From Thelocarpon superellum (taxonomy: Eukaryota): DNA of 64,000 nucleotides. Within the stretch, counting starts at the first letter, position 1. Each line of letters begins with the position of its first letter. A program made the translations under genes and the position numbers. The notes beneath the pieces are model-generated. The model was given only the letters and a program-made list of their open reading frames with translations, made no database searches and was not told the origin of the DNA. The DNA is taken from NCBI GenBank assembly GCA_026025795.1, contig JAPEUG010000035.1:1-64000 (forward strand). The letters run 5' to 3'. Below are positions 1-40,314 of the stretch, in pieces.

Positions 1-1406
1 TCGAGCGCATGGAACATCACATCACCCCCTTCGCCGAGGAGATCGTCGCCCTCCTGCCACCCCTGTGGGAGCAATCCGGCGAGACGCACCTGATGAAGCA
101 GGCTATCCTTGCCCTTTTCACCCGGCTCATCAACTCGATGCAGGTCGAGTCCCAGCGATATCATGCCATGATCCTCCCCTTGATCAATCGCGTCGTCGAG
201 TCAGGATCGGTGAGTCCTTCAAGCTTCCTACTCAAACTCGACTCCATCCGTGCCATGTCTCACACAACGTTTACGCTAGGAGATGCAAGGCTACCTCCTT
301 GACGATGCGCTTGATCTATGGGCCGCCGTCCTCACGCAGACCGTAGCTCCAGCCTCGGCGACGCTCATGTTGCTGGCGCCGCATCTCTTCCCCATCTTCG
401 AGCTCGGTAGCGAGAACCTACGAAAGGGACTGGAGATCACCGAGTCTTACCTCCTCTTGGCCCCCTCCGAGATGCTGCAGGACACGGTGCGTGAGCGGCT
501 GCTGGGGAGTTTCGCAGCGCTGCTCCAAAGTGTGAAGCCTAGCGCGGTGGGACACATCACGCGCATGCTCGAGGTGCTGGTACGCGTGGCGGAGGGCCTA
601 GGTGGGGACGCGGCGACGGAGGTGGTCGGGTCCGGGCTGGTGGCTAGCGGTATCATGGGGCATGCCGTGCATGCATTGAATCTGAACTGGGAGGCGCGGC
701 AGACGACGGGACCTCGCCGCCTGCGTCCGCCGCTGGACGGGGCGGTGGCGACCGATTATCTCAGCGTGTTTGCCCGTCTCGCCCTTGCCAGTCCCGGCGT
801 GTTCACGAGGAGCGTGCGACGCGCGTCTACATCGCCGGACGAGAGCGTGGCACACATTCTGGACGAGTGGTTCTATCACTTTGGCAATCTCGGCGATCCG
901 GCCCAGCGGAAGCTGAGCTGCCTAGGCATGACGCGCCTGCTCGAGACAGGCGAGCACTGGATCTTGAGCCGCATGCAGGACCTGATGACCGTCTGGACCG
1001 ACGTGGTGCGAGAGGTGCAGGATGGCATGGAGGACCCAAAGGCCGAGTGGGTGGTCCCACGTGGCGCCCCACCCGGAACTTGTGCTGACGCGCGCCTAGC
1101 AACCTCGTCAAGTGGGACGTCGAGGGCCTGAAGCCGGCGCATCCCGAGCCGCCGGAGACGGAGCGTCGGAGATTGGTTCGTTGCCACCTCGCCGTTGCCT
1201 CGTGCGACCATCGGTATGCTGACTGGCCCCTTCCGCAGTTCACGTTCGCGGACCCGGTGCACCGAACGAATACGTTGGAATGGATCAACCACCACTTGCT
1301 ACAGACCATGGAGCGGAGTGGGGGACAAGACGCCTTTCAACGCGAGTGGCTGGTGAACGTGGACCAGGACATCATTCGCAGCTTCGGGGAGCTCGGGGTC
1401 CTGTGA
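1..1406 (+). CDS. KAP120: Importin-11/Kap120-like karyopherin-beta, 3' part (begins before window); introns ~210-279, 1047-1099, 1176-1238
   Basis: Helical-repeat sequence with motifs LPPLWEQS..HLMKQAIL, YLLDDALDLW, ENLRKGLEITESY, RKLSCLGMT and C-terminal DPVH. GT..AG introns join ORFs 9-302, 283-1131 and 1173-1406 in frame. Confidence 0.8.
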
Positions 1407-2509: not shown

Positions 2510-4933
2510 ATGTCTCGGCCAGTATCGTTGCCGGGTCGAGATGGCGATGTGCACTCTCACCTGCATACGCCTTCTCCCCCGCTCTCCAGAGCGGATTCGT
2601 TGAGCCCTCGGCTACCACTCGTGACCTCCGCTCGTCCTTCATCTTCCCGCGTGTCGCCCGCCTTCAGTCGGCAGACTCAACGCCTACGCCTCCGCCAGGC
2701 ACGCTTTCAAGCCACGCCCTTGTTCTCCACGGAGGATGGTACAGACCCTCTCTCTCCATCCGTCGAACCCATCCCCTTGATCTTTGCCGACGGCGAGGGC
2801 GAGACCGAGGCCGCCGAGCAACCGGCCCTTGAGACGGTCCGCCGACACTCATCCGCCACGTTCGCCACTCTCGGTCACGATCACGATCAGGAGAACGCCG
2901 TGCATCGGACGCTTCGCCGCCGCGATCCAGACGCGACCCCGGAAGTCGCGTACTCCTCCCCTGCGCCGGACGAGACCATGAGACTCCGCGAGGGCTCCAC
3001 GAATCCCCGCGCCCCGAGCCTGAAGCGGCCCAAAACACGGCCGAAGCGATGGGGCAGCGTATCCTCACCCGACTCCGAGGCGGCTCAATACATCGAGCAC
3101 ATCGAGGCACAGCTTACGATGTTGCAGAGCCAGATCAAACTCTTGACCTCGCCCACCAACGCCACCTCGCAGGCCAGCAAGCTGCGGGCCGCCGTCACCG
3201 AGGCTCGTCACTTGCGCCTCGATGTGGCAGACTGGGAGGCCAGGTTCGAGCAACGAGTGCAGGAGGGCATCGCCGCCCGCGCCGTCACCGAGGCTGGCCT
3301 GAGGACGAGCATTCGAAATCTCGAGCGCGAATGCGAGATCGTGGCGGCGGAAGCCAGCGACCTGGGCTGCCAGCTCGAGGAGATGGAGAAGAAGGTTGCC
3401 ACCACGGACGCCTTGGAGGCCGAGAATGCCGCCCTCGAAAAGCGGGTCGATCTCCTGACCAAGCTATTGGCGCACTCACCCACCGACCCGGCCTCTCAGC
3501 CGGAGCTCTCGTCCACGGGGGATCTCCGACGGCAACGGAGTCGACGTCGGCCCCGGTCGATGATCGCTTGCGTCGCCTCTCCTGAGGAGGCCCCTCGTTC
3601 GGTGCCATCGATGGAGACCCCGAAGTCACACAAGCGGCGCTCCCTTCAATCCACCTCGACGCACAGCGCAAGCTCATCCATCTGCGAGGCCTGCCCGGCG
3701 GATTTTCCACGTTCTCCCCTTGCTTCGGCCTCTCGGTCGCCACTCGTCGATGGGACTCGAGATCTCGAGCCGGCATCCATGCCGCGCACCCCATCATCCC
3801 CGCTGGCGCCGGATGCCTCGAGCGCCTGGGGCTCGCCTCCTGCGCCGTCGTCGGCTCCGCCGCGGCGCACGATGCGTCGCTTCCGCGCCGGGTCCTCAGG
3901 ACCCAGGCCGTTAATCTTGCCCATCGCGGCACAGTCGACCGGCTTCCAGACCTCACCCTCGGTCGGGACTGGACCTTCGGAGCCGTCGGAGCCGACAATG
4001 CTCCGGCTCCGCTCCACGGCCTCTCCCGATCCCTCCGGTGTGGAATCGTCCACGGACAGCTCGGTCCTCCACCCGTCGTTGTCGAGCTTCGCCGAATCCG
4101 ACACGCGTCGGGCGCCGCGCAGCCTCTTCGCGGAGCTGAAGGCGCGCCACCAGCAATTGTCGTCGTCTGCGACGACCGGGTCGTCGCTGGATGCGGATGT
4201 GGCGTCGGTGGTCGACGGCTCGAGCGCCGTCTCACGACGCGGGCTGAGGACTCGGCCCGACGTCTGGTTCGGCCTCGCCTCCCACCACCGCCCTCCCCCT
4301 TTCGCCCTCACCGGCCACGCGCAGTGGCTGGAGACGTGGCGCGACCCCATCCGACTCGTGTGGCGCGTCGTGGTGGCGCTGTGGAGCCCACGGACCACGG
4401 TCCGCATGCTGGCAGGGTTGAGCTGGTGCCTGTTGGGCCTCGTGCTGGGACCGGGGACGGGTTCCGCCGAGCGTCCTAGGCGCCTGGGCCCACCCCAGCC
4501 ACACCAAGGTGCCGGAGGAAGGGATGAGGACGGCGCCGTCTTGTCGAGGTCGGTGATGGTGAGCAGGGAGTTGATCCCCGCTCCCTCGCCAACCTCCGAG
4601 GCGGCGGTGAAGCCGTCCCGAAGCCCGGGAGCCGGGTCACCCTTGCGGGTGGCCTGGAGCTGGCTTCGCTTCTCCGTCGCCTTGGTGTTGGCCGTCGGCG
4701 TGGCCGTGCGGGAGGGGCCGGACTCCTTGTTCGCGAGGGGGAGGGAGGAGGGTGGGGCCGAGGCCGTCGAGGTGGACGGGGCGGAGGAGATGGAGGAGGG
4801 GGAGGATGAGGGGGAAGACGAGAAGGACGAGGGCGATGGCCCTGATCAGCGGCGCCTGATCGGGGCACCGGAGCCCGCGCCGCGGGCGACGGGGGGGATC
4901 TGGGGGGTGGGGCTCTGGCGGTCATTCTTTTGA
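2510..4933 (+). CDS. Hypothetical 807-aa protein: S/P-rich, central coiled coil, two C-terminal hydrophobic segments and acidic tail
   Basis: Long intronless ATG ORF. Heptad-like region YIEHIEAQLTMLQSQI...LEKRVDLLTKLL. Hydrophobic LAGLSWCLLGLVLG and WLRFSVALVLAVGVAV. Confidence 0.8.
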   Translation: MSRPVSLPGRDGDVHSHLHTPSPPLSRADSLSPRLPLVTSARPSSSRVSPAFSRQTQRLRLRQARFQATPLFSTEDGTDPLSPSVEPIPLIFADGEGETEAAEQPALETVRRHSSATFATLGHDHDQENAVHRTLRRRDPDATPEVAYSSPAPDETMRLREGSTNPRAPSLKRPKTRPKRWGSVSSPDSEAAQYIEHIEAQLTMLQSQIKLLTSPTNATSQASKLRAAVTEARHLRLDVADWEARFEQRVQEGIAARAVTEAGLRTSIRNLERECEIVAAEASDLGCQLEEMEKKVATTDALEAENAALEKRVDLLTKLLAHSPTDPASQPELSSTGDLRRQRSRRRPRSMIACVASPEEAPRSVPSMETPKSHKRRSLQSTSTHSASSSICEACPADFPRSPLASASRSPLVDGTRDLEPASMPRTPSSPLAPDASSAWGSPPAPSSAPPRRTMRRFRAGSSGPRPLILPIAAQSTGFQTSPSVGTGPSEPSEPTMLRLRSTASPDPSGVESSTDSSVLHPSLSSFAESDTRRAPRSLFAELKARHQQLSSSATTGSSLDADVASVVDGSSAVSRRGLRTRPDVWFGLASHHRPPPFALTGHAQWLETWRDPIRLVWRVVVALWSPRTTVRMLAGLSWCLLGLVLGPGTGSAERPRRLGPPQPHQGAGGRDEDGAVLSRSVMVSRELIPAPSPTSEAAVKPSRSPGAGSPLRVAWSWLRFSVALVLAVGVAVREGPDSLFARGREEGGAEAVEVDGAEEMEEGEDEGEDEKDEGDGPDQRRLIGAPEPAPRATGGIWGVGLWRSFF

Positions 4934-7066
4934 GCTGAGGGCGAGGGCGCTCATTCCTCGCGCCTATGCTCCGCCTGTCTGAACATTAGTATACCATGGC
5001 GGGCGTACCATTACCCTACCGGCGACGAGCAGTACTTCCTGTAGTACTTAATACATATATGACTCCGTCTTCGTACCATGATGGTGTTGTAGGGACGAGT
5101 GACCATGGGGGATGTGGAAGGCACTTAAGATCGCCCTTCGACGTCACATCTACGCCGGTACTCGTACCTCTCGTTCCGACATCGGAACCCGCCTGGTACC
5201 AGGGCTATCACTCACTACGACTGCACGTTTTACCTGAAGCGCTCCGGTGGCAGTCGTAGAAAGGGTACTGACAGGGTCATTACGATTAGGTACTTCGTAT
5301 GTCGACATGTTTTTGTGGGAGATCTGGCTCCCTCGGGACTGGGCTGTCATCCACTTGGATACGCATAGCTATCCTAGGGGGAGGGGCTGCTAGGTCTGAT
5401 CGATTACATGAAGAGCCTCTAATACCGATCGAAGGCCCCAGGGCTGTCAATGGTCCCGCTGTGCCCCCGGGAGCCTCCTCTGTCCTGTTTTCTACCACTG
5501 CCGTCGTGGGGCCGGGGCATGCCGACCTGTCAGACAAGATTATCGGGGACCCTTACAGCGCGCATCGCTGGTGATGTACCTTGATGTACCTCATAGATTC
5601 TGGAAGGCCTCCCGGGACGTGAATTGCATTGGGGTTGTAGGTCGTGCCCCCCCTACCTCCTCGTCCCGGCTGCCGGAGACCTCGAGTAGTTATTTGACCC
5701 ATCCTATGCACACGGAACTTGCGCGGACACTTGTGCAATACGAAAAAAAGTCAACCAAACGCCCGGCCCTGTTTCGCATTGGACAATATGAGGAGTGATC
5801 GTGTCTTATTAGTGCCGTCCGCCGCCGATCGATTGACACCTGACACAGGATCTCTCATGTGCCAGATAAACATCCGCCCGACTTCTGACGGCTGACCTTG
5901 GGATCTGGTCCAGCGACCAACAGCTGCGTGGACGCTACTTCGAGCAGTGAGTCGGAAGAGTGACCTGCGTGGACCCTTTGTCCTGCACCCGGTGGCGGTG
6001 CCCAGCCCGTGGCCGGGGCCAGGGGGCGCAAGCGGGTTTGAAACACCTTAGGTGAATCCTCGAGTCCTTCTATCTCCGTGCCGAACGAATTCCTCCCGTA
6101 GTCGGGCGTGGGCACTCGACTCAAGCGAGCAACGGCGAAGCGAACGGCGACTACAGGGCCAGCAGACTGTCCGGACGCCTCGCTATTGCCCGACGGGTAA
6201 TAGCATGGTGAGCGCTGGCGTCGGTTGGGAGGTGGATTCCGGTCCACACGTGCCTAGCATCCACGCGTGGACAGGCACCTCGCCTCGCTGCGTACGGTGG
6301 CACGACCGCAGATTGGCCCGGTGGAGGAATTGGCCTGGATGGGTTGAGATTACGTGAGGCGTTGATTGGTCGCCCCCCCTGAGCCAGGGCGATCGGTTGG
6401 TCGGTCAGCCTGGGCCTGGTGCCTACGGGGCCGCTGCGCTTCATTACTTCATTTGTCACCCCGGCTCGTGGGACGGTGCGCTCGGCTGAAGCGAGCCCAC
6501 CGGCGGCCTTCCCCTGGAACTCTCACGGACCAGGGAGTGGAAACGGTTCCTGCATCAATGCATAAGTTTCGCACGCCATTGGTCGCGGGTCCGCCCAGTT
6601 GGCCAGCGATGACCGCGCATTTCCCTCTGGAGCACTGGCGTGCGCGTGGTGGCTTGGGCGGACCGACGGATTGGTGCGTCGCTGCGGTGGGGAAGCGATG
6701 TGGCTGCGGGCGGGCTCACGGTGGACCAAACGATCTGCGAGGCCTCGATGAGAGGGGCCATGGAGGCGCCGGTGGGGAGCCGCTGCGCCCACGCCCACGC
6801 CCACCGCCGCACCGGGCCGATGATAATGCTCGTCACCCACTTCCATCCTCTGCCAGTTTCAGGCGCCGTGCTCCTCTGCCTTTTCCGTCTGCCTCATCGT
6901 ATCTGTTTTTCGTCACTCCCTCAACCTCGTGGTGATTTGTGCCAGTGCCAGTGCCCGTGCCAGTGCCAGTCGTGAGTCGATCTCTGAGAGATACGACGCG
7001 TCCAATCCTTGGTTGCTCCATCACCCTCACGGTCCTCGTCCTCCCCTTTGATCAGCGCCCGTCAGC

Positions 7067-25447: not shown

Positions 25448-26287
25448 GGCGCTTCTCTTGCCGCGGGCCGGCAATGTCGATGTCCGGCAAGCTCGGCGAA
25501 TTTACCACATTGATCCACCAGCGACAAAGTGGAGTGACCGAAGCGGCACCTGATGAAGTAGCAGGAGACCGCCCCGTAGTTATATGGTACGTATGGGTCA
25601 ATGTTGCATGAGATTCCCCTCGTTGTGGTGAGCGTGACCCTGTCAGAGAGATCCGGCGGCCAATCGTCGTCATAGGTGATGTCCACACGTGCCACACGGC
25701 CAATCACCTCCGCTCGTTGCTTCTCCACACCGCCGACAGACTTTCAGCCACGAGCCGCGCCGCCGACCATTCCTATCCGGCTTGTAGTCATTCCCCTGCC
25801 CTGGTGCGCGACACGGCTTTCTACTGCTATGAGATAGCACTCTGGCCGTGAGAGAAGTGCTTATTTACCTTATGCACGCGTCAATAGACGAGTTGAACCA
25901 ACCGATGGACAGTGGCTTGCACGTCTGCCTTCGACAAGCCGGCCTATCGCACGTGATCACAAAATATCAGCTCTGCAGGAGCCCTCCAACAAGCGCTTTC
26001 AGGACGACGAGATTTTTGACGAGAGCTCTCGGTAGAGGTCTACAGGTCAATAAATGGGATGACTCGGCTCCTTCATGGCACAAGATCAGGTTCGGAGTCC
26101 TCGCCAAGGCTCCGCATCGCCTATCCTGTCCCGGTCCCCCGCCTTTGTCAGCAAGATTCGACATCCGAGTGTCTCTGGCCGAAGACCAGCTCCACGTCGT
26201 ATATGAAGGCTCGTTCAGCTGGGAATAATGGGACCAATGTTTGGTCACCGTCGATGTACCACCCATCGCTCCTAATCATCTTCTGCC

Positions 26288-27939
26288 ATGGCCGAACTCT
26301 CCAACGATGGCACGACGCTGCTGATGAAGCAGGTAGTTGATGGGTACGATGCCCTGCTGGATGAAGTCAACCGCCTCACACGAATGACCGCGTCCTTGGA
26401 GCGTCGACTTGCCTGGGCACATAAAGAGGTAAGGTGTCTTGCATCGTTGTTCAGACGTCTCATTCTCTCCCATGGAGGTTTCGTGTGCATTGCGGGATGA
26501 TCTCAAATAGCTCTAGATCAGGAGCTACCACGTAGCGATGATCGATTTCCTAGTAACGGTCTGACAATTGTTGAAACTACCCATCTCTCTCTCGACCGCC
26601 CCGGACTTATCGGCGCTTGGAATGTAGCTGACATGGGTATATGCAGTACAAACAATTGGCCTCACGCTACGCCGTGGCCAAGGACGACCCGATCTTCAGC
26701 GCCCGGGACCGGTGGACCTTTGGGAGCGATTCGGGCGCCGGAGAGACCCATGAGGCCCTGGTCATGGATGCTGTCAGCCTTTTCCAGCGCAACTTTCCGC
26801 AACGGACAGCCGACGCGGCCATTCATCCGTCCATTCAACAAGGATGGGAGGCACGCAAGAAATTCGCCGTTATCATGCAGTGGCCAGCCCTCCCTGATGG
26901 CTATATGCCCTTTGACTCGGCCGAAAGCAGCGCGTCCACTCAGCCTTCAACACTTGAGGGGGATGCCACAGAGTCAGGCCACGTCAACGAGTCCACCTCA
27001 AACCGACCGTCATGTCCGTTCGCGAAAATGGGCGGCGCCAAGCCTCCTCATCACCCCAAACCTGCCCCTCCGGTCTCCGCGCCACGCAGCTCTCAGAGTC
27101 TCCCGAACCCCATCGCGGTGGGCCCCTCTCAAACGGCATGCGCGGCCCATCCCTCGCCTCCGCCCTCAGCGACTGGCTCGGCGGCCAAATGCCCCATTCG
27201 CTTTCTCACCCATCAGTCACCGGAAGCAGTGGCCGAGTACCTGGAGAAGCATAAGCACGAAGTCCCTCGGAGCCACGAGGTTTGCGTCAAGCGACACCAG
27301 ACCAACACCGAGGACATTCGACGCCTCGACGCCAAATATGGAAGCTTAGTGCAAATGGTCCAAGAGCTGGGCGCCAAGCATCAACCACTCTTACCACCGA
27401 AGGAGGATGAGGAAGGCCCGGGGCGAGCAGAGGAACTGACCAATGAGAGAGTCGAGTCGTGGGCCCGAACTGTCAGCGGAAATGTACAGCTCACTGAGAA
27501 CACCGATACGAAGACCGAGGGCAGAGAAAGTCGATTCGACCGTCCGATGAACGAGGTTCGTTTGGGAGAATCTCCCAGTCGCCCATGGGGAATCCCCGTC
27601 CCACCCTTAGACGACCCTATCAATGTGACGGACCCGACGGGTGTTGACCTCTCGGAACGTTCCGTCGCTGCCGCCATTGCTACCGCCACGAGTGAGCCGT
27701 CGCGGCAAGAGTTCCTGCGCGGGAAAGCATCTGCCAGGATGCAAGAGCCCGCACCTCAAGCAGATATACCCGACGTCAACTTCAAGTACGACGCAGCATT
27801 TCTGCAGCAGCTCCCCACGACGAGGGCTAGGCAGTCGAAGATGATCTTTACGGGACCTGTTTTTATCGGGTATCCCATGGAACAGGCCATGTCATTCCTA
27901 CAACACCACAACGTTGGCAAGCCTGGATCGGGTGAATGA
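26288..27939 (+). CDS. Conserved-looking fungal hypothetical protein; 218-nt intron 26429-26646
   Basis: Exon 1 coiled coil (YDALLDEVNRL..LERRLAWAHKE) spliced via GTAAGG..GCTGAC..CAG to ORF 26641. Motifs KCPIRF..SPEAVAEY..HKHEVPRSHEVCVKR, GESPSRPWGIPV, FTGPVFIGY. Confidence 0.85.
26489..26568 (+). ncRNA. Candidate intronic box C/D snoRNA
   Basis: Terminal stem ATTG(26489-92)/CAAT(26565-68); box C GGGATGA 26494-26500; box D CTGA 26561-64; internal hairpin GCTAC-cac-GTAGC followed by C'-like GATGA; TAGCTCTAGA complementary to the conserved 18S motif UCUAGAGCUA. It lies in the longest modelled intron, ~80 nt from the 3' splice site. Confidence 0.7.
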
Positions 27940-38452: not shown

Positions 38453-38978
38453 CAACTTGGCAGCTCTGCACTACAGCTCAATCATACTTTATGAAGTCCG
38501 GGGGTTGGGTCCTAGCGCTCCATTGCGGAAGAGCCTCCAGACATGAGGAAGTGACAATTTCCGTCCTGTCCAACATTGTCAGGAGCATATCATACCATGG
38601 TACATGTTAGCGAATGCCAGAATGACAACGACAGGCATTTGATCAAGATAACTTGCACATTCAAGTGTTTTCACCTATAGCAAACCATCATCAGGCGCTT
38701 GTGTTTTGGTCTGGGCCTGTGCTCTGTATGTGACCACGAGTACAAATGAGTCTGGCTTCTATTCGTATTATTGATGAAATCCCGGTCTTCCTTTTATAAA
38801 TCTGTCATACTTTTGGTCTTGGGCGCTACTGAAGATTACCATCTATTGAGTCTCCAACCATATCGATGCGCACAACCGCCGCCCTGACCAACGAGGGCTG
38901 CAAGTCAACAAGCTGCGTTACTCTCAGTCTGGAAAGAACAGAATAGTTGTTATATTTATATAACCTCATTCCGGTAAT

Positions 38979-39068
38979 GATAAGATGGCCGAGTGGTTAT
39001 GGCGGCGTGTTCAGGTCATCAAAATCGCGTTGGAGCAATCCGCCGGGGTTCGAATCCCCGTCTTATCA
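38979..39068 (+). tRNA. tRNA-Leu(CAG) with ~9-nt intron (39016-39024)
   Basis: Acceptor GATAAGA/TCTTATC, discriminator A; D arm GCC-GAGTGGTTAT-GGC; anticodon stem GCGTG/CGCGT with loop TT-CAG-G; long variable arm GGA-GCAA-TCC; T arm CGGGG-TTCGAAT-CCCCG; upstream TATA-like TATATTTATATAA and downstream T-run terminator. Confidence 0.93.
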
Positions 39069-40314
39069 TTATTTTTTGGCTCTTTTTTTCTCCCTTTCCA
39101 AGAATCTTATCAGATTTCCCTTCGGCGAGGTTTGCTCACCGACCAGCGAAATCCTCCTTTTCGGACATACATCCTGTCTGCATGGCAAGCTAGTTTGGAA
39201 TGATCATAGGAAGGTACGAGTGTTTAGTCGCTCGATGGGAGCGCAACTTCCCTACCTCGGGTTTCTGGTGTTGATTTGCGCGACGATCAGCCGCGATCGC
39301 CCAGGCGCTCCTCCAGGCCGCGGTTTGGTTTGCCTCCACCTCATGTGTAGATGTTGAGGAACCGGTCTGGTCGATGGCCGAAGGAAGAATCAGGGTCGTG
39401 AAGAAATATGCCGATTTGGTGGTATTACAGCCGGTGGTACGGTAGAGATCACCAGACTAAAGTGTAAGAACAGGACAGTCTTCATATCTTCCGGGCCTTG
39501 TCTTTTCAATCTTCCTCAGACCGCAACAAATCTTCGGAGATCCTTCACCTCCTGTCCTGACATCCTGCTCTCTCAGTGAATCTCACCGCGTCGTGTCGCG
39601 TGGGATGGTTGGCGGAAGCAGGTGGGGGGAGGACATGTGGGGAATTTGGTAAGAGTAGAGCGGTAGGTACGGTCGAAGTACCTCACAGAGCTTCATGTAG
39701 CCAGACGCACCCACTGAACCCTGGAGCCTTGAGGGTTGAGACAAGGGATGTGAAGTTCTTCTTCTTCCATGTTGAACTGTTCCTGCACAAAGTGGTGGTC
39801 TGCTGGTGGTCCAGCAGATGAAAAGAAGGGGATAGACAAGACGACCTCACCCACATCCAGACCAGCGATTGATCTCAACCCCTGGCCTTTCGACCATCGA
39901 GATATCACACTGCCCCCCGTGCAAACCCAACCCGACGAGAACATGGTTCGACTCTTCATCGTAATCCGGCGGTGTGCGTATATCCAACGTCGCGAATCTG
40001 CTATTCTGGTTGGTAGCAAAGCGGCGTAGATGGAGATGAGCATTCATTCAATCACTCAATCAGTCGAGCAACATTCGTTCAATCTTCACCTCTTGAAATG
40101 ATGGCCCGCGTGCGGGTGCGAGTCAGTCAGTCGGTTCAAAACTACCTAGGTAGATGTCTAGCTGGATCCAGTCACCTGTGATGACAGACATTATGTAGGC
40201 AGGAGATGAATGGGGGAGTGTGAACGTGATGGGACGAGGATGGAATCGGGACGGGAATGGAGACGGGTCCGAGGGAAGGTGGGAGAAAACGGATGGAGGA
40301 AGGAATAGATCGAT

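Follow-up and report, generated by a model that had tools for sequence, protein, structure and literature searches.

Two intronic box C/D small nucleolar RNAs (snoRNAs) are the closest described counterparts of the element reported here, which is located at positions 26,489–26,568 on the forward strand of a 64,000-nucleotide (nt) stretch of the Thelocarpon superellum contig JAPEUG010000035.1 (positions 1–64,000; assembly GCA_026025795.1), hereafter the window. Aspergillus fumigatus Afu-199 (AM921939; Rfam accession: RF01501) is recorded in Table 1 of Jochl et al. 2008 on the basis of 26 complementary DNA (cDNA) clones, with lengths of 79 nt for the cDNA and 80 nt for the northern band; it is encoded in intron 1, sense to the host, of Afu7g02320, is listed there as an orphan, and is down-regulated during conidiogenesis (PMC2377427). 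Neurospora crassa CD15 (within GenBank accessions EU780925–EU780999) is entered in Table 1 of Liu et al. 2009 as intronic, with a length of 73 nt and with cloning and northern blot as evidence of the RNA; its D′ guide is predicted there to direct 18S-Am159 (11/0), tRNA-Thr is suggested for the D guide, and no homologue is listed for S. pombe, S. cerevisiae, Arabidopsis or human (PMC2780460). In the same source the neighbouring 18S sites are assigned to other guides, A154 to CD17 (U45A/C-like) and both A161 and U167 to CD32 (U44-, U45A/B-like) (PMC2780460). As read from sequence comparison, the window element is very probably an intron-borne orthologue of Afu-199 and, by predicted target, of CD15 that would direct methylation of 18S A159.

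Relationship to Afu-199, CD15 and U44/U45-type guides

The element spans 80 nt from stem to stem and 71 nt from C box to D box. A terminal stem of 4 bp is formed by ATTG (26,489–26,492) and CAAT (26,565–26,568), and encloses, in order, the C box GGGATGA (26,494–26,500), with G instead of U at the second position of the RUGAUGA consensus; the D′ guide (26,508–26,518), with a core TAGCTCTAGA (26,508–26,517) that pairs with 18S; a degenerate D′ box CAGG(A) (26,519–26,523), in the same register as the CTGG/CTGA of orthologues; an internal hairpin GCTAC-CAC-GTAGC between D′ and C′ (26,524–26,536), in which GCTAC (26,524–26,528) and GTAGC (26,532–26,536) form 5 bp; the C′ box GATGA (26,537–26,541); the D guide region TCGATTTCCTAGTAACGGT (26,542–26,560), for which there is no convincing target; and the D box CTGA (26,561–26,564), which does not vary among the 37 aligned orthologues. 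Both the C′ and the D′ box are degenerate and flank the 5-bp hairpin, which covaries across the family, and the sequence GCGATGATCGA in the C′ box region is identical in two of the homologous loci described below, L056 and L060. Features of the box C/D class found here are the C and D boxes, the terminal stem, the internal D′/C′ pair and a D′ guide of ∼10 bp with a fifth-base target, and this predicted snoRNA layout is beyond chance. The initial annotation of the window, made from the letters alone, had proposed a box C/D snoRNA in a 218-nt intron with this set of boxes, the kink-turn stem and the GCTAC/GTAGC hairpin; all of these parts were found in place, and the full-length alignment to RF01501 agrees with the complete layout.

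That alignment was obtained below the usual threshold. An Rfam scan of the whole 64-kb window at the gathering threshold gave no match, and a permissive scan of positions 26,380–26,680 aligned RF01501 (Afu_199) at 26,490–26,567 over model positions 1–77 of 77, with 31.2 bits against a gathering score of 45 and an expect value (E) of 5.5e-4 for the 301-nt search; the standard scan finds nothing in the window because the RF01501 score lies under the gathering score. The box order is that of the RF01501 consensus, with which UAGCUCUAGAUCAGGAG of the window agrees; D′ guide and D′ box together hardly deviate from it, unlike the 3′ guide. When 20 representative orthologous loci were scanned with Rfam at the gathering threshold, two were accepted as RF01501, L016 (50.4 bits) and L020 (46.2 bits), exactly at the coordinates of the family covariance model R1 (see below), which ties the whole orthologue set to the known family; L059, though it carries the consensus D guide, remained under the gathering score. 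With only two of 20 clear orthologues reaching the threshold, the RF01501 model is evidently narrow and under-detects its own family, and for this reason a genuine snoRNA is missed by a standard Rfam scan.

By sequence, the predicted snoRNA adds one more member to a described family, as an orthologue of A. fumigatus Afu-199 (RF01501). It had been put forward as a novel hidden RNA, with an Rfam scan named as a check and with the proviso that an Rfam hit would confirm the RNA and remove the novelty; RF01501 indeed aligns over its full length, at a score under the gathering score, and membership of the Afu-199 family, together with kinship to CD15 by predicted target, takes the novelty away. The main value of the result is therefore one of annotation, and the findings would not surprise a specialist.

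Similarities between the window snoRNA and Afu-199 extend to box order, a length of 79–80 nt, a sense-strand location in intron 1 of the host, a hairpin between D′ and C′, and a D′ guide and D′ region that are almost the same in both. The two differ in the D guide, which in the RF01501 consensus is complementary to 18S around U167 and in the window is not. Orthology of Afu7g02320 to the window host gene could not be confirmed: searches with the window host protein and with its L059 homologue gave no A. fumigatus protein among the matches listed (120 each). With N. crassa CD15 the window element shares an intronic C/D organisation, a D′ guide directed to predicted 18S A159 and a D guide lacking a target in ribosomal RNA (rRNA), a link that rests on the common predicted site and organisation and not on the CD15 sequence; they differ in that a tRNA-Thr has been proposed for the CD15 D guide (Liu et al. 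2009, Table 1). Canzler et al. 2018 assigned seven of nine A. fumigatus orphans to families with validated targets, and the main-text passages searched do not name AM921939 or CD_15.

The U44/U45-type guides (human SNORD44/45; N. crassa CD17 and CD32) are alike in having targets within this short part of the 18S 5′ domain, and in Eurotiomycete-type members of the present family the D guide addresses U167. The window snoRNA differs from these guides in selecting A159, 2 nt 5′ of the U44-type site, and the Rfam scans of the window gave no match to U44/U45-type families. A target in the U44/U45-type region had been suggested for the D′ guide; the region was correctly located and the site is another one, A159 rather than A154, A161 or U167. 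Predicted A159 is thus a separate, Pezizomycotina-type site within that region.

Conservation of the D′ guide beside the host gene

The case for a functional D′ guide is carried by its conservation at one position relative to the host gene. Eighty metagenome loci were fetched by alignment to the host protein alone, and a 17-nt guide core (up to 3 mismatches) was found upstream and on the same strand in 61 of them. An alignment of 37 distinct snoRNA copies (A2, which includes the window sequence) was used to build the covariance model R1, which was run against the window and all 80 loci. In the 64-kb window R1 gave a single match, at 26,488–26,571 (57.1 bits, E 4e-10, with the window sequence included in the model alignment). 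Across the loci, matches were obtained in 69 (E up to 6.7e-5), and in 68 of the 80 the match lies on the host strand, 150–660 nt upstream of the protein match. The remaining 12 comprise ten that do not reach the position, one in which the intron is lost (L080) and one with a diverged D′ guide (L045); eight loci are cut off upstream, L072 starts within the snoRNA D box and continues to the intron end, and L044 is without upstream sequence. Conservation of boxes and guides in orthologous introns had been named in advance as a check on the prediction and, as judged from position and strand, was borne out for the boxes and the nearly invariant D′ guide in these 68 of 80 loci beside a host homologue.

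Columns invariant in A2 (37 of 37 copies) are both C-box GA dinucleotides, AGCTCTAGA, one C of the D′ box and CTGA, and the intron flanks and the D-guide region are unconserved. Since the A2 copies were partly ascertained through the guide motif, the invariance of their guide is partly built in; five members found only by R1 (L060, L033, L048, L044 and L059) keep 8 or 9 of the 9 bases of AGCTCTAGA. The internal hairpin has compensatory changes in all five of its pairs, with 82.7% of cells paired, and its covariation score was reached by none of 500 shuffles in a control that took the hairpin and the terminal stem jointly; slid registers score lower. The terminal stem columns read ATGC/GCAT in L011, L058 and L073, the nearest relatives of the window, against ATTG/CAAT in the window itself. 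Across the family this stem is weak (38.5% of cells paired), which agrees with the remark of Jochl et al. 2008 that a canonical terminal stem is missing from the C/D snoRNAs of A. fumigatus (PMC2377427).

Complementarity was assessed on two reference fungal rRNAs. A scan of prokaryote-labelled assemblies with a 20-nt motif of the large-subunit (LSU) rRNA gave 51 loci, mostly eukaryotic LSU fragments, and two such contigs, with boundaries set by Rfam, provided the references: L137 (full 18S, 5.8S and the first 2215 nt of LSU) and L140 (a complete ribosomal DNA (rDNA) unit). Under the fifth-base rule, by which the modified base stands opposite the fifth base upstream of D or D′, the best rRNA match of the window D′ guide is 18S A159 of L137 (A160 of L140), with 10 contiguous Watson–Crick pairs and T26514, the fifth base upstream of D′, opposite A159; the numbering in L137 18S is the same as that in Table 1 of Liu et al. 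2009. The proposal that the D′ guide is antisense to the 18S 5′ domain thus holds on both references. With the D′ box in one fixed register, all 42 distinct members of the family pair over 8–13 bp with 18S around A159, and 40 of the 42 do so over at least 10 bp (10–13 bp), the window among them with 10 bp.

Anatomy, homology, positional conservation by host gene, covariation and complementarity can be read directly from these sequences, and expression, processing, protein binding and methylation of the window snoRNA are predicted from them. After splicing of the host transcript, whose gene is conserved and of unknown function, the 218-nt intron 1 would release the snoRNA, which would assemble into a small nucleolar ribonucleoprotein (snoRNP) on its C/D and C′/D′ motifs; pairing of the D′ guide with 18S would then lead to 2′-O-methylation of adenosine A159 (N. 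crassa and L137 numbering).

Several points weigh against this assignment. In single-sequence folding the minimum free energy of the window snoRNA is no better than that of shuffles (z 0.48), and folding energy at shuffle level is usual for C/D snoRNAs and uninformative for the class. The 31.2 bits obtained with RF01501 fall short of its gathering criterion, and E would be ∼0.1 if scaled to the whole window. Placement within the same intron can be seen for the window and L072, and is deduced elsewhere from position and strand. The 10-bp D′ duplex taken alone is not significant, being equalled by 16% of 150 shuffled guides on the L140 rRNAs, so that the case for the target rests on conservation. 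Methylation of 18S A159 is itself a prediction in the passages of Liu et al. 2009 (PMC2780460), and a literature search for RiboMeth-seq returned no rRNA methylation mapping in filamentous fungi among the matches listed, as judged by title and start of abstract. Two boxes, finally, are off consensus, the C box as GGGAUGA and the D′ box as CAGG, a form unique to the window among the 42 members. Drift in these two boxes, the former off RUGAUGA at position 2, might mark a decaying copy, a relic that no longer resides in a stable snoRNP, and the RF01501 score under the gathering score, the loss of the intron in L080 and the loss of the D′ guide in L045 would be in keeping with such decay. Yet the GA dinucleotides that form sheared pairs in the C, C′ and D boxes are intact, as are the 10-bp guide, the internal hairpin and the 4-bp terminal stem, and comparable box variants occur elsewhere in the family: the D′ box takes 12 forms among the 42 members (CTGG in 21, CTGA in 4), and C-box variants TGAGGA, TGACGA, AGATGA and GGATGA stand beside a fully conserved guide. 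Decay of the window copy is accordingly judged very improbable, and the orthologue of Afu-199 and CD15 with a maintained A159 guide remains the preferred reading.

Three loci depart from the common arrangement. In L080 (positions 1–560) the host homologue reads through the junction with no intron and no snoRNA match is found there, which suggests that the intron was lost and that the snoRNA either went with it or moved elsewhere. The copy in L045 (1530–1625) keeps the C box, hairpin, C′ box and D box, and unrelated sequence replaces the otherwise invariant TAGCTCTAGA. L044 carries a family member (1148–1233, reverse strand; 43.1 bits) ∼560 nt downstream of the host-gene fragment and in the opposite orientation to it; relocation, inversion or faulty assembly could each account for this arrangement.

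The D guide

The family as a whole combines one fixed host-gene position and one 18S guide, across many Pezizomycotina-type contigs, with a second guide that changes between lineages and that in Eurotiomycete-type members is aimed at a neighbouring 18S site. L059, upstream of a host homologue whose nearest relatives are Chaetothyriales proteins, carries the RF01501-consensus (Afu-type) D guide, which forms 12 bp with 18S and selects U167; many Leotiomycete-like copies retain a short CATGTA core complementary to the U167-region stretch of 18S, at a variable distance from the D box; in L060 and its relatives the D guide pairs over 10–13 bp with 18S at U1250/1252; and in L011 it pairs over 11 bp with LSU at A1571. 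The window D guide is common to no orthologue, and has no complement in the A154/A161/U167 region of 18S in the two reference rRNAs. Most likely it has drifted from the 18S-directed guide kept in Eurotiomycete-type members and has no conserved target. That it has instead been re-tooled, either for a lineage-specific methylation in the variable LSU segment beside UAGUGGGCCAUUUUUGG or for a partner other than rRNA, is unlikely; if true, it would be a recent case of one guide being exchanged while the rest of the scaffold and the host intron stayed the same.

The first of these possibilities would make the window RNA a double guide, its D guide having switched from 18S U167 to a lineage-specific LSU methylation 5′ of UAGUGGGCCAUUUUUGG. 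Its best match under the fifth-base rule, at LSU U1109 of L140, consists of 9 contiguous Watson–Crick pairs between CTAGTAACG and CGTTACTAG, with three further G–U pairs beyond one mismatch, and the stretch concerned, just 5′ of the conserved UAGUGGGCCAUUUUUGG, varies between fungi (11 variants, with the related ACGTTAT in L086), so that the LSU of T. superellum itself could match better; the well-matched lineage-specific D guides of L059, L060 and L011 offer a precedent within the family. Equally good matches were nevertheless reached by 28% of 150 shuffled guides under the fifth-base rule, and any 9-mer rRNA complement by 22% of 2000; the LSU of L137 lacks a complement to the window guide at this stretch, and no orthologue carries the same guide. 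A methylation at U1109 through the D guide is on this evidence improbable, and the earlier impression that the D guide lacks a recognisable rRNA complement agrees with a best match of 9 bp at chance level.

The D guide had also been noted to resemble the sense strand of the LSU 5′ region, and a non-rRNA or chaperone target was considered on that account. The likeness is real: its 11-mer CCTAGTAACGG agrees base for base with the LSU 5′ sense strand of both references, L137 and L140, and of further fungal LSU pieces, among them L086, L088, L097, L115 and L118, and a match of this length is reached by 1.25% of 2000 guide shuffles. Through it the guide could act as a decoy or chaperone for a binder of LSU nucleotides ∼75–85, or it could act on a messenger RNA, tRNA or small nuclear RNA, and a tRNA target has a parallel in that proposed for the CD15 D guide (Liu et al. 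2009, Table 1). Against this, an 11-mer sense match to the same rRNAs occurs in two of the 42 family D guides, those of the window and L033, which indicates that such matches arise without shared meaning; the guide is unconserved in any orthologue; no complement to it (up to 3 mismatches) exists elsewhere in the 64-kb window, one tRNA gene included; and no such mechanism is given for the Afu-199/CD15 family in the published passages. The sense-strand identity is therefore treated for the present as a coincidence and constitutes weak evidence, nothing supports the non-rRNA or chaperone target for a guide that simply varies, and action of the D guide by this route is extremely unlikely.

Host gene and rDNA-bearing contigs

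The anatomy of the host gene was read directly from positions 26,100–27,000 of the window, with frames taken from the open reading frame listing. Exon 1 (26,288–26,428, forward strand) has 47 codons, starts with MAELS, ends with AHKE and directly abuts the GT of intron 1 (26,429–26,646, 218 nt, GT..AG, phase 0); exon 2 (26,647–27,939, 430 codons plus stop) is in frame from 26,647, after the AG, to 27,939. Annotated homologous proteins of named fungi continue across the junction without a break (alignment A1), and the coiled-coil N-terminus encoded by exon 1 is similar in these homologues, where it runs on into exon 2 sequence. The product is a conserved Pezizomycotina protein of unknown function, for which a search of Pfam gave no family; 1258 homologues were found at E up to 0.001, the named ones, all 'hypothetical', coming from Leotiomycetes, Lecanoromycetes and other Pezizomycotina. 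A branch-site-like CTGAC lies inside the intron at 26,628–26,632 (forward strand), and its A at 26,631 is 63 nt from the snoRNA 3′ end (26,568), a distance within the range favourable for assembly of intronic C/D snoRNAs in vertebrates.

The contigs that served as a source of rRNA are of some interest in themselves. By eye, 49 of the 51 LSU-motif matches in assemblies labelled as bacteria or metagenome-assembled genomes (MAGs) (L085–L135) have a eukaryotic LSU 5′ context, and these are eukaryotic, often fungal-looking, rDNA contamination; L112 and L129, among the same 51, are unrelated sequence. L140 derives from a 24-kb contig of a MAG labelled bacterial, and its tandem rDNA repeat contains a group I intron (RF00028, 109.5 bits) in the LSU rRNA gene at positions 4854–5196. 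Viral-collection contigs were set aside as a source of rDNA, as three LSU-motif matches in them are not rDNA, with 0 Rfam matches, and L081 offers only a short 18S-like piece: in positions 1–330 (reverse strand) of this contig ∼107 nt of 18S-like sequence are joined to unrelated sequence, and the assembly is probably chimeric. Within the 64-kb window, the sole tRNA gene predicted by ARAGORN is a 92-nt tRNA-Leu(CAG) at 38,978–39,069 on the forward strand.

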